From NCBI RefSeq assembly GCF_000145295.1, contig NC_014408.1, forward strand, positions 1,440,001 through 1,472,000: a stretch of 32,000 nucleotides of DNA, written 5' to 3'. Position 1 is the stretch's first letter. Each line of letters opens with the position of its first letter. The stretch is from Methanothermobacter marburgensis str. Marburg. GTDB lineage: Archaea > Methanobacteriota > Methanobacteria > Methanobacteriales > Methanothermobacteraceae. Under the pieces are notes generated by a model. That model was not told the origin of the DNA, did not search any database, and saw nothing but the letters and a program-made list of their open reading frames with translations. Position numbers and translations under genes: made by a program. Positions 9,257 to 29,664 of this stretch are shown piece after piece.

Positions 9257-10330
9257 ATGGTTCTTGGAAAGGAAGAAATCCTGGAACTTCTCCTTGTTGA
9301 TGGCCCTGAACTACTGGACCTCATGAAGCGTGTCTGCGAGCCAGGGGAGGTGACCTACTCACGGAATGTCTTTATACCCCTCACAAGGGCCTGCCGCAAC
9401 CGCTGCGGCTACTGCACCTTCAGGTCAGACTCCCCCGACCCACCCATCATTCCCCCAGGGGACGTCCTAAGGGAGGTCAGGAGGGCCAGGGATGTGGGGT
9501 GCACAGAGGCCCTCTTCACCTTCGGTGAGAATGCACATGAGTTCCCCGAGGTGATGGAGAAACTCGAAGAGCTCGGATTCAGTGATATGGTTGATTATGC
9601 CCATCACCTCTGCAGCGCCACACTGGATCATGGTCTTCTGCCACACACAAATATGGGTGTGCTTGGCTACAGGGATCTCAGGAGGCTCAGGGAGGTGAAC
9701 GCCTCCATGGGCCTCATGCTTGAGTCTGCAAGTCCCCGACTGATGGAGGAAGAGGCACACCGTGAAAGCCCTGGTAAGGATCCTGCCTTAAGGATAAAGA
9801 TGATAGAAGACGCTGGGCGGCTCAGAATACCGTTCACCACAGGGATACTCGTGGGTATAGGTGAGACAGTGGAGGAGCGGGCCGAATCACTCCTTGAACT
9901 CAGGCGTATCCAGGACAGGTACGGTCACCTGCAGGAGATAATAATCCAGAACTTCCGGGCAAAGCCAGGGATACCCATGGAGCGCCACCCAGAGCCCTCA
10001 CTACTTGAAATGGTGAGGATGGTTGCTGTGGCCAAGCTCCTCTTTCCCGATGTGAGCATACAGGTGCCCCCAAACCTCAACAGGGAAACAGGTGAGGTCT
10101 TCCTGCTTGCAGGTGCAGATGACTGGGGTGGTGTTTCACCGCTGAGCAGGGACTACGTGAACCCGGAGGCCCCCTGGCCAGAGATAGATGAACTTCGAAG
10201 GCTCACAGAGTCCGCGGGCTTCACGTTAAAGGAGAGGTTACCGGTTTACAGGAAGTTCATCAACCCTGATTTTTTAAGTCCGAAGGTCATCGAGACAATA
10301 GAAAGGCTTTACCCTGAATTCCTTGTATGA
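9257..10330 (+). CDS. cofG: FO (7,8-didemethyl-8-hydroxy-5-deazariboflavin) synthase subunit 1, radical SAM enzyme CofG
   Basis: Radical-SAM cluster 'CRNRCGYCTF' preceded by 'NVFIPLTRA'. The size (357 aa) and the C-terminal 'DDWGGVSP' are typical of CofG/CofH. The choice of CofG over CofH rests on N-terminal context and is from memory. Confidence 0.8.
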   Translation: MVLGKEEILELLLVDGPELLDLMKRVCEPGEVTYSRNVFIPLTRACRNRCGYCTFRSDSPDPPIIPPGDVLREVRRARDVGCTEALFTFGENAHEFPEVMEKLEELGFSDMVDYAHHLCSATLDHGLLPHTNMGVLGYRDLRRLREVNASMGLMLESASPRLMEEEAHRESPGKDPALRIKMIEDAGRLRIPFTTGILVGIGETVEERAESLLELRRIQDRYGHLQEIIIQNFRAKPGIPMERHPEPSLLEMVRMVAVAKLLFPDVSIQVPPNLNRETGEVFLLAGADDWGGVSPLSRDYVNPEAPWPEIDELRRLTESAGFTLKERLPVYRKFINPDFLSPKVIETIERLYPEFLV

Positions 10331-10443
10331 CACCTTCTTTGAGAATTTATGGGTCCCTAAGGGGCTGGTTTATCCAACTGTTTTTAGATTATGATTCTTC
10401 AACCACCGGGGCCTTTCATGTTTAATCTCAAGGTCTGATTTCT

Positions 10444-11010
10444 TCAAATGTTAGATTGTGTTTCTTCAACATCAGGTAGTATTATGGTTCCCTCGGAGGG
10501 ATCCCCTAATTCAATGAAATTTCCCTCTGAATAGAGGAGGGCGACCAGTGCAGCCGTGAGGGCGTCCCTCTGGTGTATGCTCATTGTGGAGGTATCACAG
10601 ATTTCCAGCCGCAGACCCGCATTTTCTAGCATCCCCTCTGCCGTCCTGGGGTGTGTCTCAATAACCTCCACCCCACGGGACTCAAGTGCCTCCCTTATCC
10701 TGATACCCCTCATGGTGAGCTCCCTCATCCCCCTCCAGGTCAATGGTAGAACACTGCCATACCTTCTGATCTCAAGGTCCGCCCTTCTGAAGTGGCCATG
10801 CCTGCTGCAGCTGCAGTCACTCCTGAGGCAGCAGCGCCCTCTGGGAAGTGAGAGTGGCGCGTCAACCGCCACTGTATCTGCGGATTTCACTGAATGGATT
10901 ATCTCATCAAATGAGAAGACACTGAACACCTTCACTCTCCTGCCGTCTATTATGGCCACACCTGTCTCGTTTTCATGAGATGCGGCCAGATCAACGCCTG
11001 CAACAGACAC
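10444..11010 (-). CDS. DUF429-like predicted RNase H-fold protein with a Cys cluster
   Basis: 188 aa. The N-terminal 'GVDLAAS..ETGVAIIDG' beta-strand/Asp pattern is typical of RNase H-like DUF429 proteins, and 'CCLRSDCSCSRHGH' is a metal-binding-like cluster. Confidence 0.55.
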   Translation of the reverse strand: MSVAGVDLAASHENETGVAIIDGRRVKVFSVFSFDEIIHSVKSADTVAVDAPLSLPRGRCCLRSDCSCSRHGHFRRADLEIRRYGSVLPLTWRGMRELTMRGIRIREALESRGVEVIETHPRTAEGMLENAGLRLEICDTSTMSIHQRDALTAALVALLYSEGNFIELGDPSEGTIILPDVEETQSNI

Positions 11011-11019
11011 CGCTACCCC

Positions 11020-11802
11020 TCAGTGGACCCTTACATCCAGGACAACATGCCAGACACCCGGCGAGTACTTCTTTATAATATGCCTGTCAAGAACAGACAC
11101 CCTTCTCGGGTGTGCTGCCCTTTCAATCCTCTTAATGGGTCTTGAGAACATTATATTCTCGGGAACAGTTTCATGGTAGTGTAAAACGCCCCCCTCATTG
11201 ACGCATTCCATCGCAGCTTCAAGGAAGTGGTGGGTGGTTCCAACATAACCCATTATAACCCGGTCAGCGTCCAGTTCAGGGGCGATGGAACGGCAGTCCC
11301 CAAGGTGTGGTTCCACGACCCCCTCAACCCTGTTGAGTTTTATATTGGATTTGAGGAATTCAAATGAGTCAGGGTTTATCTCTATGGAGTGGACCCTCCC
11401 TGGGTTTGAATGGACCGCCACCGGTATCGAAAAGTAGCCTATACCTGCAAACATGTCAACAACGGTTTCGCCGTCCTCAACAACTCCGGGTATTCTGGCC
11501 CTCTCATTTATGTTACCCCTTGACCACATTACCCTGGAGAGGTCTATCCTGAAAAGGCAGCCGTTTTCCCTGTGGATTGTCTCGGTGCATTCACCTGCAA
11601 GGACCCTGACGCGGGGCCTCCTCAGGGGTCCACTTATCCCCTCAACAAGGAGAACACCCCTCACACCCGGCATTTCAAGGAATCTTTCAGGGTCCTCAAC
11701 ATCCCTGTTTAGAACTATAATGTCCCCTATCCTCACCCATTTCATGTTTTCACTGCTATGGAGGGCTTTCTGAAAAATAAATCCATAAATGTTCTTCTTC
11801 AT
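11020..11802 (-). CDS. Trm5/Taw2 (Met-10+) family SAM-dependent tRNA modification enzyme
   Basis: SAM-binding 'VVDMFAGIGYFSIPVA' and 'EINPDSFEFLKSNIKLN' are characteristic of Trm5/Taw2. The short length favours Taw2-like. An internal Met at 11745 ('MKWVRIGDIIVL') is an alternative start. Confidence 0.75.
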   Translation of the reverse strand: MKKNIYGFIFQKALHSSENMKWVRIGDIIVLNRDVEDPERFLEMPGVRGVLLVEGISGPLRRPRVRVLAGECTETIHRENGCLFRIDLSRVMWSRGNINERARIPGVVEDGETVVDMFAGIGYFSIPVAVHSNPGRVHSIEINPDSFEFLKSNIKLNRVEGVVEPHLGDCRSIAPELDADRVIMGYVGTTHHFLEAAMECVNEGGVLHYHETVPENIMFSRPIKRIERAAHPRRVSVLDRHIIKKYSPGVWHVVLDVRVH

Positions 11803-11889
11803 CAAAGTATTTAATGGCTTCTGTTGAAGGCAAAAAAGATAACTAGCATGAAATCCAACTCTTCATATATAAATTTGAGGGGTTTTTTT

Positions 11890-18401: not shown

Positions 18402-18944
18402 ATGCTTACACGAATTGAAGCCATAGAAAGAATTGTGGGCGTCCTTGATGATGAAATCGTGGTATGCAACCTGGGTTTCCCATCAAGGGAGCTCTACAGT
18501 ATCAAGGATTCGTCAAGACATTTCTACATGCTTGGATCCATGGGTATGGCCCCCTCCATTGGACTTGGCCTTGCCCTCTCACAGGATAGGAGGGTTGTGG
18601 TACTTGATGGTGATGGATCCATCCTCATGAACCTGGGGGGACTGGTAACAGCCGCTGCCCAGGCACCCAAAAACCTCGTCATAGTCCTCCTGGACAACAG
18701 GTGCTACGGAAGCACTGGTTCCCAGTGCACCTACTCAGATCTCATAGACCTGGGGGATGTTGCCGGGTCAATGGGATTCAATGTTATCAGATTCCACGAG
18801 GAACCTGACTTTAAGCGTGTCCTCCAGGAGGATGGGCCAGTTTTTGCCCATGTGCCTGTAAAACCTGGTAACGCGGATGTCCCTGTCATAGATTTAAGCC
18901 CTGAGGAGATAATTGAGAGGTTCATGGATGAGGTGAGATCCTAG
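18402..18944 (+). CDS. comE: Sulfopyruvate decarboxylase subunit beta
   Basis: TPP-binding motif '[15 protein letters not shown]...[12 protein letters not shown]...LLDN'. ATG 18402 is preferred over TTG 18378. Confidence 0.85.
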
Positions 18945-20710
18945 GACCTCCTCCCTGTGTATGTTGCGTAGAAACCATCTGTATCTGCATAAACCGTATG
19001 GAAACCGAATTCCTCGGCTATTTTTATTGTCCTCTTTATGTAATCCCTTCCCCATGCGGTTATGGCCTCTGCACACTCCATTGAATACCACCTGAACCTT
19101 GAGTAACCGTAGACCCCGTACATGGTGTTTGCAAGCCTCTTGAGGGCCTCCTGCTGTACATTGAGTATCTTTCGCTCCATGGGGTCATCTGAGCGCTTCA
19201 TCTCCCCCTTGATTCTGACCCTCTCAGAGAGTATCTCGCCTATAACCGAGGGTACAAAACCTGCTGGCTCCTTACGGAACCTGTAACCGTATTCCGGTGC
19301 AACGTGGCAGTCACAATCTTTCTCATCGGTGAGTGTGTCCGGGGATATGTTCTTTGAGATTATTATGCTGGGGTATAGGCTGCGGAAGTCGAACTGGACT
19401 ATGTTCTCATGGAGGCCCCTCTCAGGTTCCTTAACATACCCTCCAACGGCCCTGCGACCCCTTCTCTTTGAGAACTCCGAGTGTGATGGTTTGTTTGGTA
19501 CAAGTTCGCCGTACTGGTATGCCTTCCTTACAAGGAACCATTCGGCCTGCTGTCCGGTTGCCATGCGGGATATGTCAAAGAGGGGCTGGCCAACTATACG
19601 GGTGAGCTCCATGTTGAGGGGGAGAATCTTCTCTGCGATCCGGTAGGTTGCAACGACGTCATCAAGGGAGTACCTGAAGAGTTCATCCCTCAGCTCCTCC
19701 CGGTCCCAGTACTCCCAGAGCTTATCGCCTGGAAGGTCCAGCTTCTCCTCCCCGAAGAGTTCCTGGTAGACCCTCTCAAGTGTGTAGCGGTCAAGGTTCA
19801 TGTACCTCCTCATCACAGGGTAGAGGTCCACGTGCACCGTTCCCTTTATGGCTGTTGCGTTTGCAAATCCCCTCCTCATGGTCTTTATCCTTGAGCCATC
19901 CCATCCAAGGTCAAGTTCCACCCCAAGGATCTCGGCCCTCCTTGATAGGTAGGGGAAGTCGAAGTTGTCGGAGTTGTAGCCCACAAGGATGTCGGGTTTT
20001 TTCTCCCTGACGATTTCAGCGAACCTCTCAAGGATTGCCGCCTCATCCCCAACCCTTTCAACGAAGTCCAGGTGCTCACCCCTCGTTGATATCACCGATT
20101 CAACGCCCATGTTACCGGCAATTCCAACCATCACTATCTCATCATTCTCAGGGTCAGGCATCCCATGGGGGTTTCTCACCTCAATGTCAAAGCTGAGGAT
20201 GTCCAGCTGGGGGAAGCCAGAATCAGATGTTTGTATCCCGTCGGTTATCTCAATTATCCTCACATCATCTGATGTGATGGATGATGCCGACTCCGCCTCC
20301 ACGCCATTGAATTCTATCCCTGCCATTGGAACGATTGACCTGTCAATGAGGTACCTCCGGTAGAAGGGGATGTCATGTTCCCTTATATCCGCAACGGATT
20401 CAAGGTTCCTTATCCTATCCCTTAACTTCGGAACCTCCTGGGGGTGCCTGAATTCTATCCTTATAACCTCCACCGGTTTTCCAAGGTCCCTTCGCTCTGT
20501 GACCTCAAGTTTTTCCAGTCCCAGTTCAGCGAGGTCATCCAGGCACCTCTCTGTATCGATGGGGATTGCATAGATGTATGGCCTGAATGAACTGTCATAT
20601 GCGATGATTGGCTCATTTCCTGACTTGTCCTTACCAAAGAGCCTGATGACGGGCATCTCATCGACCGTTAGGTAGTCGATGTCAAGGAGCACCATGCTGT
20701 ATCTTTCCAT
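18941..20710 (-). CDS. polB1: Family B DNA polymerase, large N-terminal piece of a split PolB (exonuclease domain plus polymerase motifs A-C)
   Basis: Exo I 'LSFDIEV', Exo II '[11 protein letters not shown]', motif A '[10 protein letters not shown]', motif B '[13 protein letters not shown]', motif C 'VYADTDG'. The ORF stops 12 codons after motif C, so the thumb domain is absent. Confidence 0.9.
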
Positions 20711-20963
20711 GGAGTTTACTCTGTTGTGTGGGACTAATAAAATGTTCTAGGAATGAAGGGGTTATCCGTTTAACTGGCTTGCCAGACCAGTATGCCATAG
20801 TATCAAAAGATATTAAAAAATGTGAACACAGAGCAGTTGACTTGTAAAAACACCTGCAAAATCTCGACTTGAACAACTTCTAAAACAAAACGGAACAAGA
20901 AAAAAATCAGATAAAAACTATAGATCCCTTTCATGTCAAAATGTAATAAGACACCATTGAGTT

Positions 20964-21284
20964 AGAGTTTCTGTGAACAGACAATACATCCCATTACAAA
21001 TCGATAAAGATGTTAAGCCCGTGAAGAATTACAGTAAAGAACGTGAAAAATTACGTGATGTAAGCATTATCGCTTCCTCCTTTGGCAATAAACCATACGC
21101 TCCTGGTGGAGTGTAAGTACCGCAGATACAGACTCAAACAAAGACGTTATGTGATGAAATGCCAATTTATCACTGGGAAAATCATTCCAATGCCAATTTA
21201 AAGAAACACTCAATGCAATCTCATTTGCATTACAAAGAAAGAGATATTAACACTTCATGCATGCTTTGCATGGATTTTTTGTAA
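20964..21284 (+). pseudogene. Possible decayed ORF: about 107 codons open except for one TAA
   Basis: One frame reads '..VNRQYIPLQIDKDVKPVKNYSKEREKLRDVSIIASSFGNKPYAPGGV*VPQIQTQTKTLCDEMPIYHWENHSNANLKKHSMQSHLHYKERDINTSCMLCMDFL*'. A single stop at 21114 in about 35% GC DNA is fewer than chance would predict. No family recognised. Confidence 0.25.
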
Positions 21285-21430
21285 GTTTTTAATGAAAATC
21301 ATGAACATGGGATGTTAGAGATCTAAGAGAAAATGTAAGTGACGAAGATCTTATCTAATAAATTTTAATATTAAATTTGTGTTATATAATGGGATTTATG
21401 TTTTTCGGTCCTCAATTGGATAATAATATT

Positions 21431-21438
21431 TTTATATG
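21431..21438 (+). promoter_or_regulatory. TATA-box-like element (tttatatg) for the large island gene
   Basis: It sits in an A/T-rich context about 46 nt upstream of ATG 21477. GGAGGTG (21464-21470) is the ribosome binding site. Confidence 0.4.
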
Positions 21439-21476
21439 ATTTTATAATCAACTTTATTTTGCTGGAGGTGTTTTTT

Positions 21477-23996
21477 ATGAGAAAGTTTCTGTTCTTTATG
21501 ATGGCTGTCTTGTGTTTCTATCTTATAGGTAATTCTTTCGCTCTAAGTTTATCATATGATGAGGTTTGTGACGCCTCTAAGATGATAGGAAACTATACAG
21601 CATCACAGAACCGTATACCATCAATGGTTGTGGTTAATGGGAAGAATATAACATCAGACAATTATTTGTATGCGGCGTCCTCCACTGTCCTGAACCTTAA
21701 TCAGGGCAAAAGGACCGGCATATCATTACCTGATTATAATCCTCCTACTAATCCGAGTGGGGCGGCAACAGGAACACTCTACAAGACATACACAACAGGG
21801 ACAGGATACCTCCAAGCAGCCCAGAACATCAAAAACTTCATGGAATCCAATGGCAGGTCGCCGAACTATGCCAACACAGCCATTGGACAAGTGCGCTACG
21901 AAAGCCTGATCTACGCCTATGCAAGGATAATAAACTTCTACAACAGCACAGGCAAACTACCAGACCACATTACAATACAACAAATAACAAAAAAAGAAGG
22001 AACCATCACAAGGCCACGGGCCGACTACACCTACAAAATCGAAGGTTACACCACCTATTTCATGGATAAGAGCACAGGTTCCATCCAATCATGGCAATGG
22101 GACCTTGGAGACAACACAACAAGCACTGAAAGGAACCCAACACACACCTACAAAGCAGGAACATACACCGTAACCTTAACCGTCCGGGGTTATGGTGTCA
22201 CATCCACTAGGACGATGATGTTGGAGGTTATGCTTGCGACAATTCATGTTAATTCAACAGCAGTAACGTTTTTGGGACAAACTTTAAACTTAACCTTTAA
22301 AATGCCTCTTAACAATACAGCCAAATGGATTAGTATAGGGGCTATGGCTACAGGCCCATTCAATGAGACAGTATTCCTTGTGGAGGATGGTGTAGCATAT
22401 AAACTGGCAGAGCTAACCAACCCATTCTATCAGGTGAACAGGCAAAGTCAAAGGGAAATTGTCTGGACCGCCACCGCAGGACTGAACAGACTCATAGAAA
22501 TCTGCACAAAACTCGGACTCGACGAACTCGAAACAATAAATGAATACCTCAACAACTTCAACCTAACAGAACAAGAAAAGAACTTCATCCTAACAAACCA
22601 TGGAAGATGCATAGACATCCTCCAAGTCAGCATAGAATATCCTGGCGAAGAAAGTGTCACAATAGCCAACATAACATTCCCAGGGAACCGATCAACAAGG
22701 ACGCTCCTACTACTCTACACAAACGGCTACTACATACACCCGCCAGGAGAAACCGGGCCCAACATAATAATAAATGACACCCTAACCTGGGAAGCCAGCA
22801 ACTATGACGCCATTATAACCTACACCATAGCCACCAAAAAAATAACAAACCAGACACTACAATACTGGCTAAACAAAGAATACCCTCCAGGACCATTAAA
22901 AGCAGCCTACGGACTATTCCTCGCAGGCCTCGAAACAATATACCTCCACGACACAATCGCAGACCAGGCAGCCGCAAAATACAACATAACATGGACAAGA
23001 ACCAGGCCAGCGATGGTCTCAGCAGGAGACCACAGCCCAGCGACATGGATAAGCCTGGAATGCAACCACAACATGGGAGTGAAAGCCAACGGAACAACAC
23101 AAAACCTGAAAGCATTCAACTACGCAAGGACATCCACCATAAACCCAATAGAATACTATGTTATGGAAGCCTTATTCCCAGGATCAGACCCCACAACCGC
23201 CCCAATAACAGGAATAGGCCAGAAACTACTCAATGGAGAGCCACTAGACATCCTCGAAACCGAAAATTATACGCTAATCACTGACAACCAAGGAAGATAC
23301 ATCATAATAGACCATAAAACAGGAATGGTCAGAGACATAATCTACAATCTTATGGGAGCATACTGCTACTACCACCAACAAACAGAATGGGCCCAAGAAC
23401 TTGGCCGAACCATAATGTCCTCTGAAAGGTTAAAGTCACTCTTGGATGGTAATGGCACAGTAAATCTTGAAGGTTTAAGGGATAGTGTGGGAAAAGCCTT
23501 CATGGGTCTTATAGTTTCAATGCGACTCGCCCTACATAACCCCATGACCTTTGTTGAAATCATCAGTTATGGCTTGGTGGGTCAGGGCCTCATAGGAGTT
23601 AACATAGCAGCATACGCAACAACAATAGCCTACATAAACTCCAAACTCAACAACATTACAGGCAGCATCAAAGAATTTATCGTGGAACATCAAACATACA
23701 TTTCAAATGATTTTGTTGAATATATGCTTCCAGCAGTAATATATGTATTATCGAAATCTGGTGGTGGGGTAATACTTCAGCCAGTTGGTTTGTGTATGGC
23801 TATAGGCAATGGGATACTCGATTTTAGGGATCATTATCTCCCAGAGGAATATTGGAAATATATTGCATATCATCGTACATGGGCTCATGGTTATGAGCTT
23901 AGGGCTTATGTTGGTGAGGATCATTGTATACACTATATTGAAATACCGAAGGACCCTGATGGTACTCTACGGTGGGATGAAGCAGTATATATTTAA
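21477..23996 (+). CDS. Large secreted or cell-wall-associated protein: signal peptide, two pseudomurein-binding-like repeats, a PKD domain, an unknown region of about 400 aa, and a hydrophobic C-terminal region
   Basis: ATG 21477 lies 7 nt after GGAGGTG, and the TTG at 21459 is unlikely. Signal-like 'MRKFLFFMMAVLCFYLIGNSFA'. PMBR-like segments 'YDEVCDASKMIGNYTASQNRIPSMVVVNGKNITSDNYLYAASSTVLNL' and 'YLQAAQNIKNFMESNGRSPNYANTAIGQVRYESLIYAYARIINFY'. PKD signature 'WQWDLGDNTTSTERNPTHTYKAGTYTVTLTV' (about 22020-22235). At least 18 N-x-S/T sequons counted by eye. Hydrophobic segments lie near the C-terminus. Confidence 0.85.
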   Translation: MRKFLFFMMAVLCFYLIGNSFALSLSYDEVCDASKMIGNYTASQNRIPSMVVVNGKNITSDNYLYAASSTVLNLNQGKRTGISLPDYNPPTNPSGAATGTLYKTYTTGTGYLQAAQNIKNFMESNGRSPNYANTAIGQVRYESLIYAYARIINFYNSTGKLPDHITIQQITKKEGTITRPRADYTYKIEGYTTYFMDKSTGSIQSWQWDLGDNTTSTERNPTHTYKAGTYTVTLTVRGYGVTSTRTMMLEVMLATIHVNSTAVTFLGQTLNLTFKMPLNNTAKWISIGAMATGPFNETVFLVEDGVAYKLAELTNPFYQVNRQSQREIVWTATAGLNRLIEICTKLGLDELETINEYLNNFNLTEQEKNFILTNHGRCIDILQVSIEYPGEESVTIANITFPGNRSTRTLLLLYTNGYYIHPPGETGPNIIINDTLTWEASNYDAIITYTIATKKITNQTLQYWLNKEYPPGPLKAAYGLFLAGLETIYLHDTIADQAAAKYNITWTRTRPAMVSAGDHSPATWISLECNHNMGVKANGTTQNLKAFNYARTSTINPIEYYVMEALFPGSDPTTAPITGIGQKLLNGEPLDILETENYTLITDNQGRYIIIDHKTGMVRDIIYNLMGAYCYYHQQTEWAQELGRTIMSSERLKSLLDGNGTVNLEGLRDSVGKAFMGLIVSMRLALHNPMTFVEIISYGLVGQGLIGVNIAAYATTIAYINSKLNNITGSIKEFIVEHQTYISNDFVEYMLPAVIYVLSKSGGGVILQPVGLCMAIGNGILDFRDHYLPEEYWKYIAYHRTWAHGYELRAYVGEDHCIHYIEIPKDPDGTLRWDEAVYI

Positions 23997-24127
23997 GGTG
24001 GTGGTTTGTTTGGATTGATAAGCTTTATGTGCTGATTATCTAGGTGTTGGTTTCAGTGGCAGATCTACTAAGTTGTGTTTGGTTTTGGCTTTGAGGTGAT
24101 TTGTGGTGGGGTGATTGGAGAAAAAGG

Positions 24128-24517
24128 ATGGGTGGTTCTATGTTAGGTTTAAGAATAATCATAGGCTGTATACTTTTTATGTTAGTATTTATAGGTTGTA
24201 TATTACTGATATTAGGAGGTTTAGGAGAACGGGAAAAGAGGTTGGATTTTCTCTTATATGGGGTTATAGGTGGTGTGTTGCTTGCCATTGGATCTTTTTT
24301 CCTTGGGGGGGATGTGGGGGCTTTCACATTCCTCATAATCTCTTTCATCTTCTTAAATAAGATAGGGAAACTTAAGATGGAATGGTTAGCCAAATCCTCC
24401 ATAATACTAGCATACATCTTTGCTTTAACAATGATAATCTTAGACAGAATATTAATAGGTATTTTTGCTCTGATAGTGGCAACCCTTTTAATCAAAGAAT
24501 CCAAGACTTCAGTATGA
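24128..24517 (+). CDS. Small polytopic membrane protein (129 aa, about 4 TM helices)
   Basis: ATG 24128 lies 7 nt after GGAG (24117-24120). Four long hydrophobic stretches, e.g. 'LRIIIGCILFMLVFIGCILLILGG'. The overlapping antisense 163-aa ORF is low-complexity and rejected. Confidence 0.6.
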   Translation: MGGSMLGLRIIIGCILFMLVFIGCILLILGGLGEREKRLDFLLYGVIGGVLLAIGSFFLGGDVGAFTFLIISFIFLNKIGKLKMEWLAKSSIILAYIFALTMIILDRILIGIFALIVATLLIKESKTSV

Positions 24518-24597
24518 GGATCCCATTGCATACAACATGGAATGCCGAAGAACCCTGATGGTACTCTACGGTGGGGATGAAGCAGTATATTGTTAGT
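24512..24597 (+). repeat. Second, degenerate copy of the last ~85 nt of the large gene (tail copy B)
   Basis: gaggatcccattgcatacaac...accctgatggtactctacggtgggGatgaagcagtatat aligns with 23916-23996. Identical runs of 24 and 14 nt are separated by one extra G. Weaker similarity continues about 35 nt past the stop (23997-24035 versus 24598-24635). Confidence 0.8.
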
Positions 24598-24611
24598 GAG
24601 GAGGGTCTTTT

Positions 24612-24848
24612 TTGGATTATGAATCTTTGTTTGGGAAGGTTTATTTTCTTATTTGTGTTGATATTATTTTATATTTTGTTGGGATTAGGCATTTTAATGG
24701 TTTGGTTCCAATAGCGGCCCTTTTAGCCGTGTTTATTTATTTCCTTTTATTCTGGTTGCACTTCTTCGTGGATGAGTTGAAGGGAAAAAAAGAAGAAATA
24801 AGATGGATGATGGCCATAATCCTTGCATTAATTATATTCGGAACATAA
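24612..24848 (+). CDS. Small hydrophobic protein (78 aa, 2-3 TM helices), TTG start
   Basis: TTG 24612 lies 6 nt after GAGGAGGG (24598-24605). The product is hydrophobic ('VPIAALLAVFIYFLLFWLHFF', 'MMAIILALIIFG'). A 32-codon ATG ORF in another frame (24619) is an alternative, so the call is tentative. Confidence 0.4.
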   Translation: MDYESLFGKVYFLICVDIILYFVGIRHFNGLVPIAALLAVFIYFLLFWLHFFVDELKGKKEEIRWMMAIILALIIFGT

Positions 24849-24925
24849 AGAGGAGTTATCATGTTGCCAAGATGAAGGGGGATGTTAAGGTTTTTTCATT
24901 TAATAGACCATAAAACAGGAATATT

Positions 24926-25546
24926 ATGGGAGCATACTACCACCAACAAACAGAACTAGCCAAAAAACTTGGGAATGAAATTTTGAATTGGAGTGGTTGG
25001 TGGAAATTTATTGGTGTTGCTGGTGTTTCAACAGCCGAGGCTGCTGTGCTTGAACTGGGTGTGCTTTCAGCCCCAGAAACCCTTGGTTTGAGTTTGGCTG
25101 TTACCCTGGCCGCATATATTATCATGGAGCATCCTGAATGGCTACCATACATCAAAGACGCCGCAATAATGACACTACTAACACCAGGTGGCATACCTCT
25201 TGCTATGGCGTATGCATGGTTGAGTAAGGATGCTACATACTTTGAATTACTTTTAAAGAAGATAACGGATCCTAATGAAGTCTTGGATAATGTGATAAAA
25301 GAGCTTCAGAATAGTTTAGATCCAAATAGTTTAATAGGACCCGATGGGAAAAGAGGAGATATTCTCGGGTTTTTCCGTGATAGATATGTGAGGTTCTATA
25401 ACTCTCTTAAGAGGGGAGATATTGTGGATGTTGTGAAATATGGTATTGAGCTTATTGCTGGAGGAATAACGGTTGGTTCGTGGGTGGTGAGTGGCTTTAA
25501 GGAATTTGTGAAGGCCGTTCTTGAAAAAGAAACTGGAGGAGATTAA
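24926..25546 (+). CDS. Orphan C-terminal fragment 1: begins with the junction motif of the large gene (MGAYYHQQTELAKKLG) and then diverges; hydrophobic plus helical, 206 aa
   Basis: DNA at 24899-24972 is homologous to 23303-23404 of the large gene (identical runs aatagaccataaaacaggaat, tatgggagcatac, taccaccaacaaacagaa). The ORF starts at the Met conserved in 'NLMGAYCYYHQQTE'. The remainder has no visible similarity to the main C-terminus. Confidence 0.6.
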   Translation: MGAYYHQQTELAKKLGNEILNWSGWWKFIGVAGVSTAEAAVLELGVLSAPETLGLSLAVTLAAYIIMEHPEWLPYIKDAAIMTLLTPGGIPLAMAYAWLSKDATYFELLLKKITDPNEVLDNVIKELQNSLDPNSLIGPDGKRGDILGFFRDRYVRFYNSLKRGDIVDVVKYGIELIAGGITVGSWVVSGFKEFVKAVLEKETGGD

Positions 25547-25547
25547 A

Positions 25548-26171
25548 TTGGATTTAAATGCAGTCATATTATTTATATTTCTATTAAGTGTAGTCTTCAT
25601 TTTCATAGAATATTCTCTAGGAAAAATCGCGTTGGGATTAATTGAAAAAGAAGAGTATGAAAAAGCCATAAATGTCTATAGGCTCCTCATATCAAAAACT
25701 GAGAAAGATTTATTCAACATAGGATTCTGTTTCACCCAAAACAAAGAATACCAAAAAGCTTTAAAATATTATGACAAGGCATTAAAAATAAATCCGGAAT
25801 ATGCAGAAGCATGGAACAACAAAGGAATAATACTAAAAGAACTTAAAAAATACAAAAAAGCCCTAAAATGCTACAACAAAGCCCTAGAAATAAACCCTGA
25901 ACTTATAGAAGCATGGAACAACAAAGGAACAACCCTCCAGGAGCTGGGCAAATATGAAGAAGCACTAGAATGCTACAACAAAGCCCTAGAAATAAACCCA
26001 AAAAGCATTGAAACATTAACTTACAAGGGAATAACATTATCCAAAATCGGCAAATACAAAAAAGCCCTAAAATGCTTCGACAAAGCACTCAAAATAAACC
26101 CAAAAAACAAACTATTACACAAAACCAAAGCAGCACTTCACAAAAAACTTAAAAACCAAGAAAAAGCCTGA
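25548..26171 (+). CDS. TPR-repeat protein with an N-terminal TM anchor (about 207 aa, about 5 TPRs)
   Basis: TTG 25548 lies 7 nt after GGAGGA (25535-25540) and 1 nt after the stop of fragment 1. 'LNAVILFIFLLSVVFIFI' is a TM helix, followed by repeated 34-aa units such as 'AEAWNNKGIILKELKKYKKALKCYNKALEINP'. Confidence 0.85.
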   Translation: MDLNAVILFIFLLSVVFIFIEYSLGKIALGLIEKEEYEKAINVYRLLISKTEKDLFNIGFCFTQNKEYQKALKYYDKALKINPEYAEAWNNKGIILKELKKYKKALKCYNKALEINPELIEAWNNKGTTLQELGKYEEALECYNKALEINPKSIETLTYKGITLSKIGKYKKALKCFDKALKINPKNKLLHKTKAALHKKLKNQEKA

Positions 26172-26195
26172 TGTTACAACCTCGAAAATGTCGCA

Positions 26196-26639
26196 ATGAT
26201 GACCATACTACCAACACCAGGTGGTCTGCCAACATTCATCACCTACACATTACTAACAGGAGACACACAACCAATACAAAACTATCTTGAAATACTATCA
26301 AGACAGTCAGACGGATGGACCCGTAGAATGGTAAATGAGTATAGAGAAGCCGTAGATACTCTAAGGGCGGTTAGCAGTGGTAGTGTTGGTGGCGATCCCG
26401 ACGATATAGAAAGGGCTATAAATAATTTAGGTAAATTCATGAGGGATGAATGGAAGCTGTTCAAGGAGGCTTTAAAGGATGGGGATGTTGTGGAGGCCAT
26501 AAAACATGGAAGCACTATAATAGGCACCGGGATGGGCGTTGCGGCCCTGTTAACATATGAGAATCGCGAGGCGATAGAGGCATGCATACTAGGATTCAAA
26601 AACTACCTAGAAAAGAAGTTGAGAGAGGCTGGAGCATGA
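26196..26639 (+). CDS. Orphan C-terminal fragment 2: divergent paralogue of the C-terminal half of fragment 1 (147 aa)
   Basis: 'MMTILPTPGGLPTFITYTLLTGD' matches 'IMTLLTPGGIPLAMAYAWLSKD', 'FKEALKDGDVVEAIKHGSTIIGTGMGVAALL' matches 'FYNSLKRGDIVDVVKYGIELIAGGITVGSWV', and 'GFKNYLEKKLREAG' matches 'GFKEFVKAVLEKETG'. No obvious ribosome binding site, so expression is uncertain. Confidence 0.5.
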   Translation: MMTILPTPGGLPTFITYTLLTGDTQPIQNYLEILSRQSDGWTRRMVNEYREAVDTLRAVSSGSVGGDPDDIERAINNLGKFMRDEWKLFKEALKDGDVVEAIKHGSTIIGTGMGVAALLTYENREAIEACILGFKNYLEKKLREAGA

Positions 26640-27796
26640 ACCCCCTTAAGAAGATAAAGGATTGGATGGCCAGCGGAAAAGCTGGATGGCACCTCAGCGG
26701 GGGCCGATCAAGCCTAAAACAGGGAAAATACAAAGAAGCTCTTAAAGAATTCAGGAAAGCCCTCAAGGCGAGTCCAAACGACCCGGAAATCTTGCACTAT
26801 AATGCAATGACACTACTAAAACTCAAAAGACCAGAGAAAGCCTTAGAATGTTATGAAAAAATCCTCAAAAACAATCCAAAACTAGCAGAAGCATGGAACA
26901 ACAAAGGAGTAGTCCTTAAAGAACTTAAGAGATATGATGAGGCATTGGAATGCTATGAAAGGGCACTACAAATAGATCCAGAAGACGATGGAACATGGAA
27001 CAACAAAGGAGCGCTCCTTGACACAATCGGTAAACCTGAAAAAGCAATAGAATGTTATGAAAAAGCCTTAGAAATAAACCAAAAAAATGCAAAAGCATGG
27101 TATAATAAAGGTAACGGATTACGTAGTCTTGGAAAATATGAGGAGGCATTGGAATGCTATGAAAAAGCATTACAGATAAACGCAGAATTCGTAGAGGCAT
27201 GGTACAACAAAGCACTAATTCTTGAAGAACTTAAGAGATATGATGAGGCATTGGAATGCTATGAAAGGGCACTACAAATAGATCCAGAAGACGATGGAAC
27301 ATGGAACAACAAAGGAGCGCTCCTTGACACAATCGGTAAACCTGAAAAAGCAATAGAATGTTATGAAAAAGCCTTAGAAATAAACCAAAAAAATGCAAAA
27401 GCATGGAACAACAAAGGAGTAGTCCTTGAAGAACTTAAGAGATATGATGAGGCATTGGAATGCTATGAAAAAGCCTTAGAAATAAACCTAGAAAACGACG
27501 AAACATGGGCTAACAAGGGAGTACTCCTCAGGAAACTTGGAAAATATGAGGAGGCACTGGAATGTTTTGAAAAAGCCCTTGAAATAAACCCAGAATTCGC
27601 AGATGCATGGAAATGGAAAGGAATAATCCTGGAAGACCTCAAAAAACCAGAGGAAGCCCTGAAATGCCACAAGCAAGCCCTCAAACTAAACCCCCCAAAA
27701 CAAAACACTACAAAAACTTGGAAAACACCAAAAAAGTCCTACAAAAAAAGCCCTGAAAGAACTCCAAATGAAAGGCCAAAGTCACCCTTAGGGTAA
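26636..27796 (+). CDS. TPR-repeat protein (about 386 aa, about 10 TPRs) with a Lys/Pro-rich tail
   Basis: ATG 26636 overlaps the stop of fragment 2 (gcATGA) and follows GGCTGGAG. It contains repeated 'AWNNKG..L..L.RY.EALECYEKALEINP' units. The tail is 'NPPKQNTTKTWKTPKKSYKKSPERTPNERPKSPLG'. Confidence 0.9.
   Translation: MNPLKKIKDWMASGKAGWHLSGGRSSLKQGKYKEALKEFRKALKASPNDPEILHYNAMTLLKLKRPEKALECYEKILKNNPKLAEAWNNKGVVLKELKRYDEALECYERALQIDPEDDGTWNNKGALLDTIGKPEKAIECYEKALEINQKNAKAWYNKGNGLRSLGKYEEALECYEKALQINAEFVEAWYNKALILEELKRYDEALECYERALQIDPEDDGTWNNKGALLDTIGKPEKAIECYEKALEINQKNAKAWNNKGVVLEELKRYDEALECYEKALEINLENDETWANKGVLLRKLGKYEEALECFEKALEINPEFADAWKWKGIILEDLKKPEEALKCHKQALKLNPPKQNTTKTWKTPKKSYKKSPERTPNERPKSPLG
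26921..27406 (+). repeat. Perfect 180-bp direct duplication inside the TPR gene (26921-27100 = 27227-27406, offset 306 bp = 3 TPR units)
   Basis: The two 180-nt strings (gaacttaagagatatgatgaggc...aaaaatgcaaaagcatgg) are identical on base-by-base reading. In addition, 26891-26960 recurs at 27401-27470 with one mismatch. Confidence 0.95.
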
Positions 27797-28299
27797 CAGC
27801 ACCTTTGAAGGCTTAAAGAACAGCGCGAAAAAAGCTTTTATGAGTCTTATAGCTTCAATGCAACTCCCCCCACACAACCCCATAACCTTTATACTCGGTT
27901 ATGGCTTGGTAGGCCACCAAGTTAAAATGGCAGCATATGCAACAACAATAGCCTACATAAACTCCAAACAGGCAGCATCAAAGAATTTATCGTGGAACAT
28001 CAAACATACATTCCATGGGATGTTGTAGAAGGTATAATAACTATTGGTGGTGTTAAAGCTCTTGCTACTAGTGTGGAACTCAATCTAGGTTTTATAGGTG
28101 TAATTATAGGTGAAGGTGATTTGATTCTTAGGATAAGGGACCATTACCTACCTAGGGAATACTGGAAGTATCGTATCATCCAGGGTCATTCTATGGTTAT
28201 GAGGTTAGGGCTTATGTTGGTGAGGATCATTGTATACACTATATTGAAATACCGAAGAACCCTGATGTAGTTTGAGGTGGGATGATGCTCGATACATAG
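27792..28299 (+). pseudogene. Decayed third copy of the C-terminal ~530 nt of the large gene (tail copy C), broken by frameshifting indels
   Basis: It aligns with 23465-23996 and includes identical runs of 31 nt (gcaacaacaatagcctacataaactccaaac), 44 nt (caggcagcatcaaag...catacatt) and 53 nt (23899-23951 = 28205-28257). A 13-nt deletion after 'aactccaaa' and a net 4-nt deletion after the 'EYWKY' codons split it over three frames (ORFs 27840..28028 and 27992..28270). Confidence 0.8.
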
Positions 28300-28656
28300 G
28301 CTTCTTTATTATATTGCGGTTATTTTGTCATCTTTCACGGTTCCAGTAACTTTGCTGGCCATTAGATCATATGCAGTGATGCAGGCACAGGTCAGATTAT
28401 TGTTAGTGTTTCTTTTAATGATAAATTTTGTACTCCTATTATCTTAGGTCTAAGAGAGCGTTTAAATGAGAAGAAAAAGGGGCAATTGAAACCCTCACGT
28501 TTATAATATTTTTACTACTTATAATTGTTCTTCCAGGTGCTCCTGCTTAACAAAACACGGGAGACATGTAAATGAATTATCATAACTAACATGATGTGCA
28601 ATTATCATGATGCTGTAATATTACGAAATAACCGGAATAAGCATGACACTTTATGT

Positions 28657-29664
28657 TCACTGGTTCTCCTCAGCAGCTGATTCTCCAAGCCGGTAGGCCT
28701 CAAGGGCCGCGTAGGCAAGCCCCAGGACCAGTGGCCCCACTATGAACCCGGCAACACCCCATACGACCGGGCCCCCAAGGAAACCCACAAGGAATATCAT
28801 GGGGTGTATATCAGCATACTTACCTGAAAGCTTTGGCCGGAGGTATATGTCGATTGTGCTGAGGAATATCCCGAATATGAGGACCAGAACCCCCCTGAGG
28901 ATATTCCCGGTCACCAAGTCATAGATGGCAAGGGGGGTGTAGGCAGCCCATGGACCTATAACCGGTATGAGCTGAAATATCCCGGTTATTATACCGAGGA
29001 CTATGGCGTAGGGGTAGCCCAGGAGGTGAAAGCCGAGCCCCGCCATGATGCCTATGAGGAGCGCTGTGAGGAAGTGGCCATAGAATATGCTCATGAGCAC
29101 ACGTTCTGTCTCAGAGGCCATCCTCCTCATGAAGGGCTTGGCTTCAGTGGGTATGATGCCCCTTATATATGAAAGGAGCCTTTCACCATCCCTTGCAAAG
29201 TAGAATGTTGATGAGAGGAATATGAAGAGCTGCAGGGCTATCATGGGGACTGACTGTATCACATCAATCACATAGTTGATGGATCCTCTCAGTATGTCGG
29301 TTAAAATACCCCTCAAAGCCCCCAGGGTGCCCCCGGAACTCTGGAGCTGTCCCGGAAGGTAGGGGATATCAAAGCCCCTTGCAAGGGTTATGAGTGAGGG
29401 GGTGGAGTTTATGAGGGAATCCACGGTAAAAACCACTATACCAATAAGGGGCATTATAACAACGATCATGGCGATGATTATTGAGACCGAGAGGTAGGGT
29501 ATCCTCTCATTTATCCTTAAAGCCACCGGCCTTACAATGTAGGCGAACACAGCCCCCAGGAAGAGCATGGTCCAGATGGGATAGATTACAATGGCCGATA
29601 GAAGTATCAGTGCAAGTACAAGGAATGAAGCAGATGTGATGGTGCCCCTGAGCCTCTCAATCAT
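28657..29664 (-). CDS. AI-2E family transporter (PerM/UPF0118-type permease)
   Basis: 335-aa polytopic membrane protein with the family's typical layout and the C-terminal 'RPKL.G....HP....L..LGG....G..G...GP' region. Confidence 0.8.
   Translation of the reverse strand: MIERLRGTITSASFLVLALILLSAIVIYPIWTMLFLGAVFAYIVRPVALRINERIPYLSVSIIIAMIVVIMPLIGIVVFTVDSLINSTPSLITLARGFDIPYLPGQLQSSGGTLGALRGILTDILRGSINYVIDVIQSVPMIALQLFIFLSSTFYFARDGERLLSYIRGIIPTEAKPFMRRMASETERVLMSIFYGHFLTALLIGIMAGLGFHLLGYPYAIVLGIITGIFQLIPVIGPWAAYTPLAIYDLVTGNILRGVLVLIFGIFLSTIDIYLRPKLSGKYADIHPMIFLVGFLGGPVVWGVAGFIVGPLVLGLAYAALEAYRLGESAAEENQ

Follow-up and report, generated by a model that had tools for sequence, protein, structure and literature searches.

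What is the AT-rich stretch of about 8 kb that lies between polB1 and a gene of the AI-2E transporter family in Methanothermobacter marburgensis str. Marburg, and what do its repeats and broken genes represent? The window analysed here comprises 32,000 nucleotides of contig NC_014408.1 (positions 1,440,001 to 1,472,000, forward strand), and the interval in question is 20711-28656 of that window, to which all coordinates given without a locus handle refer. A sequence-only reading had described the interval as an accessory island holding internal repeats and pseudogene fragments. Both were located, and they represent spare cassettes for the C-terminus of a surface-protein gene and the scars of recombination rather than products of random decay, an organisation which that reading had missed. 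We hold the cassette-exchange architecture, taken by itself, with high confidence. By analogy with bacterial systems, the island is interpreted with moderate confidence as a polymorphic toxin/immunity-like locus, in which the exchanged tail of the surface protein would be a membrane-acting effector and the partner genes downstream of the tails would be immunity genes; the toxicity of the tails is inferred.

The main gene of the island (21477-23996, plus strand) encodes a protein of 839 amino acids from a probable ATG at 21477, located behind the sequence GGAGGTG; the listed open reading frame (ORF) opens at a TTG at 21459 and would give 845 amino acids. The product consists of a signal peptide, two PMBR stretches (Pfam, 1.1e-21), a PKD domain (PKD_4, 1.3e-12), a conserved pre-tail domain, a junction motif and a C-terminal tail, CT-A, in that order, and its single strongly hydrophobic segment is the N-terminal one. 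In Methanothermobacter sp. THM-2, its counterpart is annotated as a 'pseudomurein-binding repeat-containing protein' and is 99% identical. Since the protein has pseudomurein-binding repeats, it is predicted to be attached through them to the cell's own pseudomurein wall after Sec-dependent export. The gene is preceded by a region (21394-21476) that moves with the system and contains an A/T-rich, TATA-like sequence and the GGAGGTG ribosome-binding site; in blastn comparisons, homology to the copies of the system at other chromosomal sites (loci L082-L085) starts at 21394, and the region may act as a putative promoter. In L084, a locus from a metagenome-assembled genome (MAG), the main gene (9388-11878) is called as two overlapping ORFs of 239 amino acids, with PMBR, and 625 amino acids, which reflects either a frameshift in a pseudogene or a mistake in the assembly.

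The pre-tail domain (about residues 255-615, 22221-23303; size roughly 390 amino acids) was searched with phmmer and modelled with AlphaFold2 (AF2). The model is confident, with a predicted local distance difference test (pLDDT) score of about 85-96, and has a mixed alpha/beta structure. The domain has no match in Pfam or NCBIfam, and a profile search of PDB sequences gave 0 matches. A Foldseek search with the model against PDB and BFVD returned nothing at E<=0.001, and the matches ranked highest had query TM-scores of about 0.1 or less.

The pre-tail domain is followed by the junction motif IIDHKTGMVRDIIYNLMGAYCYYHQQTEWAQELG (23304-23405), the recombination breakpoint between body and tail. 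When full-length homologues are aligned, the body is conserved as far as the junction, whose consensus across the family is xDxETGIVRD...G(A/S)YC(Y/F)xxQQTEWAxDLG, and is then followed by unrelated sequence belonging to one of three tail types. At the DNA level, the switch falls directly behind CAACAAACAGAA in all five of the aligned sequences.

The tail that is expressed in the window, CT-A (23406-23996, 196 amino acids), is a candidate effector. It is predicted to form helices with G/A-rich, moderately hydrophobic stretches, and it ends in a conserved beta module (RDHYLPEEYWKY...HCIHYIEIPKDPDGTLRWDEAVYI) whose pattern, RDxYxPxEYWxY…HCIHYxEIP…, is kept across the CT-A family. An AF2 model of CT-A, built on a 23-sequence alignment, has a mean pLDDT of 48.7 and is unreliable apart from the terminal beta hairpin, as are the models of the tails in general. 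The tails in general are predicted to be helical, with 15-residue Kyte-Doolittle maxima of 1.5-2.2, far below those of the true transmembrane partner proteins, and none has a match in NCBIfam or in Pfam at E<=10, the Colicin family included.

Behind the main gene lie three further tail sequences that are silent in the window. The first is an orphan cassette for the tail CT-B (24901-25546, plus strand), which consists of a short junction arm (24901-24972, with a 28-nt deletion) and the complete tail B; its ORF (24926-25546) encodes 206 amino acids and has no signal peptide. Compared with the junction of the main gene at 23305-23404, the arm has 22 identical nucleotides and is 83-87% identical over the remainder. 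The second, CT-C (26196-26639, plus strand), is a fragment of 147 amino acids that has lost its 5' end, including the junction and approximately the first 60 residues; it aligns with residues 62-199 of a complete orphan in L082. The third (27840-28282, plus strand) is a pseudogene fragment of a third CT-A variant, with at least two frameshifts. It is broken into ORFs of 62 and 92 amino acids in different frames, with the last part out of frame, and has an overall nucleotide identity of 72-75% to CT-A variants elsewhere. Its repeat relationship with CT-A (23563-23961 versus 27895-28267) takes the form of four blocks of 22-75 nt that are 86-97% identical.

The tails that are silent in the window occupy the expressed position elsewhere. 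In L084 and L085, CT-B forms the end of the full-length gene (95-97% amino-acid identity), and CT-C matches the tail of the 969-residue main protein of L086 (85% amino-acid identity), a locus whose flanks match the window at 96%. Orphans bearing the junction are also present in L082, L083, L086, L087 and L169.

Comparison of individual segments reveals a clear mosaic of tails and backbones. Between the window and EMTCatA1 (AP018336), the N-terminal part of the main gene is 76.4% identical in nucleotide sequence, while CT-A is identical at 592 of 592 positions; the intergenic region with the first partner gene, imA1, is 99.6% identical, and a tail scar with the second, imA2, is 98.7% identical. 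L085 has an EMTCatA1-like backbone that bears CT-B; here the N-terminal part is 76.3% identical to that of the window, CT-B 98.4% and the partner gene TPR216 99.4%. In L084 the N-terminal part is 95% identical and the junction continues straight into CT-B. Relative to L084, the window therefore carries a 1.5-kb insertion, comprising CT-A, imA1, the scar and imA2, which is bounded by the direct junction repeats 23305-23404 and 24901-24972.

These comparisons bear on the possibility that the main protein is an ordinary adhesin, in which the tail would be a C-terminal membrane anchor, the gene downstream would encode an accessory protein and the additional fragments would be decaying paralogues with no cassette function. 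Bodies made of PMBR, PKD and beta-helix domains are typical of Methanobacteriales adhesin-like proteins, the tails do hold hydrophobic helices, and several of the fragments are frameshifted or truncated. However, a simple anchor would not be expected in several unrelated forms that all change over at precisely one motif, nor is a 100% identical tail expected on backbones that are 76% identical. Other strains, moreover, express as tails what the window has as fragments, Methanobacterium shows the array pattern again, and the hydrophobicity of the tails is well under that of the transmembrane proteins of the locus. An ordinary adhesin is thus considered quite improbable.

Each tail is associated with its own type of downstream gene. 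Directly behind CT-A is imA1 (24101-24517, plus strand), which encodes 138 amino acids with about four transmembrane segments (Kyte-Doolittle hydropathy up to 3.29) and is the candidate immunity gene for the CT-A variant of the window. In THM-2 and EMTCatA1, this CT-A is again directly followed by a copy that is 98.5% identical; loci with a different CT-A lack the gene. A minus-strand ORF of 163 amino acids (24040-24531) covers imA1 entirely; it was judged to be spurious, as THM-2 and EMTCatA1 are annotated with the plus-strand ORF, a clear protein of four transmembrane segments.

Next in order are a scar and a second small gene. The scar (24538-24611, plus strand) preserves the final ~70 nt of a CT-A-type tail that has been displaced, recognised by its direct repeats with 23939-23976 (92%) and 23974-24011 (76%). 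The gene that follows, imA2 (24612-24848, plus strand), encodes 78 amino acids with two to three transmembrane segments and is a candidate orphan immunity gene of the displaced tail; its homologues (44-59% identity) lie directly behind diverged CT-A variants in L082 and L083. Neither Pfam, NCBIfam nor PADLOC returned anything for the small transmembrane proteins. PADLOC gave only generic TPR matches on the proteins of the locus, and none for the pre-tail domain or the tails.

The partners of the other two tails are TPR proteins. TPR216 (25521-26171, plus strand; TPR_1, 1.4e-49), which has one N-terminal transmembrane segment (residues 7-42), is the candidate partner of CT-B and is present behind it in all four of the loci that have this tail, with 95-98% amino-acid identity. 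TPR404 (26582-27796, plus strand; TPR_1, 1.7e-111) has no transmembrane segment and is the candidate partner of CT-C; it probably begins with the ATG at 26636, which overlaps the stop of CT-C. It is intact despite the truncation of its tail and is found behind CT-C in L082-L086. The TPR units repeat every 102 nt. Above this periodicity, TPR404 contains an internal duplication of 306 bp (26834-27111 versus 27140-27417, 89% identical), and the duplicated region differs between THM-2 and the window.

In seven Methanothermobacter loci, this pairing of tail and partner has no exception. Behind every CT-A variant comes a small protein with two to four transmembrane segments, which diverges together with the tail: imA1 occurs solely with a CT-A of the window's type, while the other variants have relatives of imA2 (44-59%) or unrelated transmembrane proteins of 79-92 amino acids. 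Behind CT-C there is in every case a TPR404-like protein. The tail-then-partner pattern is also present in two Methanobacterium loci. The partner genes outlast their tails, as seen for imA2 beside a 74-nt scar and for TPR404 beside a truncated CT-C.

A pairing of this kind could also serve non-lethal self/non-self recognition or kin adhesion, with tail and partner as a matching pair and each exchange creating a new recognition type. This is the main rival explanation, and it is comparable to IdsD/IdsE of Proteus. An MHC-like (major histocompatibility complex-like) hypothesis has likewise been raised for the VARTIG modules of Thermococcales, and the authors of that study kept the recognition option open for what is an analogous module (PMC8416519). 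The architecture and the co-variation of tail and partner support recognition as much as toxicity; the body is adhesin-like and probably wall-anchored, and no toxin domain is detectable. Yet imA2 and TPR404 remain intact after the loss of their tails, which fits protection better than matching, and the small multi-transmembrane partners look similar to the immunity proteins that accompany membrane-acting toxins. The system also adjoins a bacteriocin-like cluster with which it shares a module. Taken together, recognition appears unlikely, and a toxin/immunity-like role is preferred.

By the comparisons above, the expressed tail is swapped by homologous recombination at the junction; the displaced tail decays, and its partner gene stays intact. 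According to the toxin/immunity-like interpretation, the tail would be a membrane-acting effector handed to neighbouring cells on contact, and the partner genes would be immunity genes. Retained orphan partners could protect against relatives that express the corresponding tails, so that the orphans would form an arsenal or protective set.

The closest parallels are the polymorphic toxins of bacteria, such as CdiA-CT/CdiI, Rhs-CT/RhsI and MafB (PMC3482391). As in those systems, an exported protein has a conserved body and a junction followed by alternating, unrelated tails of ~200 amino acids; a tail-specific gene lies directly downstream, and promoter-less spare modules of tail plus partner carry a short homology arm. 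Displacement scars and near-identical cassettes on divergent backbones are further shared features. Of the elements by which Zhang et al. (2012) recognise polymorphic toxin systems, four are found here: a multi-domain protein with an N-terminal anchoring part and predicted export, alternating tails, a co-varying downstream gene (an immunity gene by position) and orphan cassettes. For another element, a C-terminal toxin domain, the tails gave no match in Pfam or NCBIfam.

The differences from the bacterial systems are also considerable. The organism here is an archaeon, which has a wall of pseudomurein and lacks an outer membrane; the body is made of PMBR/PKD or beta-helix domains, neither Pfam nor PDB gave a match for the pre-tail domain, and the tails and partners do not fall into recognised toxin and Imm families, respectively. 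The locus has no CdiB/TpsB, FHA, RHS/YD, LXG, VENN or PxxxxDPxGL. With respect to CdiBAI (a type V secretion system), CdiB/TpsB, FHA-repeat CdiA and VENN were absent from the proteins of the window and from 59 family members, and the junction differs. With respect to Rhs/YD, there was no RHS match in the same two sets, and the junction reads GAYCYxxQQTEW, not PxxxxDPxGL.

Several observations weigh against toxicity. As described above, the tails match no toxin family in Pfam (E<=10) or NCBIfam, and the mean pLDDT of the CT-A model is 48.7; since there is neither a toxin-family match nor a reliable model of CT-A, it is the architecture from which the toxicity is drawn. A Pfam search of 59 family members revealed no known toxin domain. 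The hydrophobic stretches of the tails are only moderate (1.5-2.2), so that their insertion into membranes is at most tentative. TPR proteins are unusual in an immunity role, and TPR404 is without a membrane anchor. No processing protease, secretion machinery or route through the pseudomurein wall was identified. Finally, the same architecture in the VARTIG loci of Thermococcales was left open among toxin, immunity and self-recognition roles (PMC8416519).

The VARTIG loci (Makarova et al. 2021, PMC8416519) are a close archaeal counterpart. Like the locus described here, they are strain-variable islands with a large secreted first protein, a recombining hypervariable C-terminal region and no identifiable toxin domain, and the variable, co-directed small genes downstream include many membrane proteins tied to particular variants. 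Unlike it, the variable part of VARTIG is an immunoglobulin (Ig) domain of the CARDB type, and the downstream genes also bear Ig domains. In the present system, a helical and partly hydrophobic tail stands behind a fixed junction, each spare cassette is a shortened copy of the main gene's 3' end, and the PKD domain, which is Ig-like, is conserved and N-terminal, the variable part not being Ig. The VARTIG study reported no counterpart outside Thermococcales (PMC8416519).

The main protein also shares its general build with the Methanobacteriales adhesin-like proteins and has the features of that class, namely a signal peptide with PMBR/PKD in the window and with Beta_helix/NosD/CHB_HEX_C_1/Big in other members. 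Public annotations of the family accordingly read 'pseudomurein-binding repeat-containing' or 'right-handed parallel beta-helix repeat-containing' proteins. The description of adhesin-like proteins does not extend to the pre-tail domain, the junction, the polymorphic tail and the array of partners and orphans, which are unannotated in the records examined. A resemblance can also be drawn to pore-forming colicins and to the ionophoric CdiA-CT of E. coli EC93, in the helical tail of ~200 amino acids, the hydrophobic hairpin-like stretches and the partners of 78-138 amino acids with two to four transmembrane segments. Against this resemblance, there is no Colicin match at E<=10 and no usable tail model, and CT-B and CT-C pair with TPR proteins.

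It has been stated that polymorphic toxin systems are rare in archaea and of bacterial origin, in an account that leaves methanogens and pseudomurein unmentioned (Zhang et al. 2012, PMC3482391), and that none had been experimentally characterised in archaea as of 2021 (PMC8416519). A literature search found nothing that ties Methanobacteriales, adhesin-like proteins or PMBR to polymorphic toxins; it did not cover the survey of archaeal conflict systems by Makarova et al. (2019), which may list the family. We put forward, tentatively and with some doubt, that the locus belongs to a native archaeal contact-dependent toxin/immunity system. Such a system, present in both Methanothermobacter and Methanobacterium, would have its own junction and its own pre-tail (pre-toxin) domain of undescribed fold, with new families of membrane effectors and new immunity types (small multi-transmembrane and TPR proteins), would not derive from the bacterial systems, would be the first to be tied to the pseudomurein wall, and would shape the competition between methanogen strains.

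The methanogens concerned are industrially important thermophiles. If the tails are effectors, the system would explain the replacement of Methanothermobacter strains in digesters and power-to-gas reactors, and new membrane-toxin and immunity families would be added. If they are not, the locus still clearly exemplifies, in an archaeon, the variation of a surface protein by means of cassettes. The candidate is small and sharply bounded, and its methanogen genus can be cultivated; nature already supplies one backbone with different tails and one tail on different backbones at different sites. The locus also opens functional access to a portion of the extensive repertoire of Methanobacteriales 'adhesin-like proteins', which is unannotated.

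How did the locus come to lie at this position? Synteny was drawn from exact-protein matches in genomes and a metagenome scan; a polB1-anchored scan of species genomes yielded only one Methanothermobacter contig, which ends ~1 kb from polB1. In the close relative L086, homology to the flanks of the window (96% identical) ends at 20776 and restarts at 28618, and in a second relative, L001, divergence from the window begins at 20774. Because the flank homology stops and resumes at these points, the inserted segment can be placed at about 20777-28617. It begins with an AT-rich, non-coding left spacer (20777-21393), common to the window and strain THM-2 only, and ends with an AT-rich right spacer (28283-28617), immediately after which the homology to L086 returns.

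Elsewhere, the AI-2E gene and polB1 lie close together. The distance between them is 114 bp in L091 (polB1 85% identical in amino-acid sequence) and about 580 bp in L138 and L090 (81%), all three being Methanothermobacter-like metagenome contigs, and about 1 kb in the more distant Methanobacteriaceae L094 and L123 (about 70%). The ancestral order, as judged from these sequences, is pyrD-pyrK-AI-2E-polB1 with a short gap between the last two genes. A different insert of 6 kb, which includes a PMBR match, occupies this gap in L092 (3958-10001; polB1 69% amino-acid identity), which suggests that the gap is a recurrent insertion point.

The content of the site and its place in the chromosome vary as well. 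L086 has a 6.3-kb version at the same site, inverted relative to the flanks and with a different tail, and its main gene is only 68-70% identical to that of the window at the nucleotide level. THM-2 (CP043480) has the island of the window at 98-100% identity over most segments, with indels at the level of cassettes; about 730 bp between two CT-A fragments is present in THM-2 and absent from the window. The system occupies three other chromosomal positions, in EMTCatA1, in a M. marburgensis assembly and in a MAG. An inverted repeat near the two ends (21196-21221 and 28394-28419, 77% complementary) was considered as the cause of the inversion in L086 and rejected as a chance-level match. The two flanks of the island share no significant repeat, and there are no direct repeats at its ends.

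The composition of the island is equally distinct. GC content is 0.393 in 20711-28656 and 0.502 in the remainder of the window, and when all stretches of 7946 bp in the 32 kb are compared, the one with the lowest GC content begins at 20701. GC at third codon positions is 0.34-0.45 for seven island ORFs and 0.52-0.66 for 25 flanking genes, ranges that do not overlap, and most island ORFs favour AAA and GAA over AAG and GAG. The non-coding flanks, given earlier as 750 and 360 bp, measure 748 bp on the left (20711-21458, GC 0.325) and 374 bp on the right (28283-28656, GC 0.342). All plausible genes of the island are on the plus strand.

Low GC content together with several insertion sites indicates spread by horizontal transfer and recombination. 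Since an insert, differing versions of it and other chromosomal sites were observed, the view of the sequence-only reading that the locus is strain-variable and possibly horizontally acquired is supported; the comparison with relatives that it proposed found neither the same gene content everywhere nor a normal composition. Its account of the layout is likewise borne out: the flanks are AT-rich and non-coding, the composition and codon use set the island apart, the genes share one strand, and repeat pairs and the frameshifted 27840-28282 are present. The products, which it had described as secreted, membrane or TPR proteins, are one signal-peptide/PMBR/PKD protein, two multi-transmembrane proteins, two TPR proteins and tail fragments. 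The sequence comparisons show that the island is an inserted, strain-variable unit.

Low GC content, insertion between conserved genes, the inversion in L086 and the several insertion sites might also be expected of the remnant of a virus, prophage or integrative element, for example one with a receptor-binding protein carrying exchangeable tips, and PMBR domains are also reported for the prophage enzymes PeiW and PeiP (PMC2989375). The island, however, contains no integrase, recombinase, capsid, terminase or other viral hallmark gene, no tRNA gene and no flanking or terminal direct repeats. No relative turned up when 2.9 million viral contigs were searched by pattern, BFVD gave no fold match, and the PADLOC matches are generic TPR ones. 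A viral or integrative origin is therefore regarded as very improbable. An Rfam scan of the window at the gathering threshold gave no match, and a tRNA scan of the window found none.

The cassette system extends beyond the genus. A phmmer search with the pre-tail domain across 1.84 billion representatives found 187 relatives at E<=1e-3, 48 of them at E<=1e-30. Many are proteins of 1000-2400 amino acids, in which the domain lies near the C-terminus and is followed by divergent tails, mostly of about 200-270 amino acids; many others are short ORFs whose first codon lies within the pre-tail domain, as would fit orphans equipped with a homology arm. The N-terminal parts of the relatives contain Beta_helix/NosD, CHB_HEX_C_1, Fn3_assoc, Big and PMBR domains. 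The named relatives belong to Methanothermobacter, Methanobacterium petrolearium and M. alcaliphilum, and their annotation is limited to hypothetical or beta-helix repeat protein. In the loci of the two Methanobacterium species, a main gene is followed by a gene for a transmembrane protein, an orphan with the junction, another transmembrane protein, and so on; one of the later orphans of M. alcaliphilum has the CT-A terminal module at its end.

Several of these loci show additional features. In L086 (14250-15729), an orphan tail of 181 amino acids and the following protein of 173 amino acids with four transmembrane segments share their last 16 residues, GIKPPHIPTESEVIGG, and a second paralogue of the transmembrane protein (135 amino acids) comes next; the shared end looks like a recombination scar that fused the ends of tail and partner. 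In the M. alcaliphilum array (L169, 13298-14572), a DDE transposase (DDE_Tnp_IS240, a weak match) lies between two sets of orphan and transmembrane protein. An MNT/HepT toxin-antitoxin pair (NTP_transf_2 and HepT-like) adjoins the system in M. petrolearium (L087, 9083-9695) and in the Methanothermobacter MAG (L084, 18368-18836).

The bacteriocin-like cluster mentioned above is located directly upstream of the system in EMTCatA1-type genomes (L082, 6135-9078; L085, 5150-8446). It contains a Peptidase_C39 protein in which the last ~47 residues, behind a double-glycine-like leader in EMTCatA1, match the CT-A terminal module, as well as small peptides with 'LSTEEMQKIIGK' leaders that resemble double-glycine leaders, each followed by a multi-transmembrane ORF.

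The two genes that bracket the island in the window are both on the minus strand: the AI-2E family transporter at 28657-29664 (Pfam, 1.1e-66) and polB1 at 18941-20710 (DNA_pol_B_exo1, 1.4e-36). Of a family B DNA polymerase, the 589-residue product of the latter comprises only the exonuclease domain and a portion of the polymerase domain, its match to Pfam DNA_pol_B being restricted to model positions 15-230 of 453, in keeping with the split PolB of Methanothermobacter.

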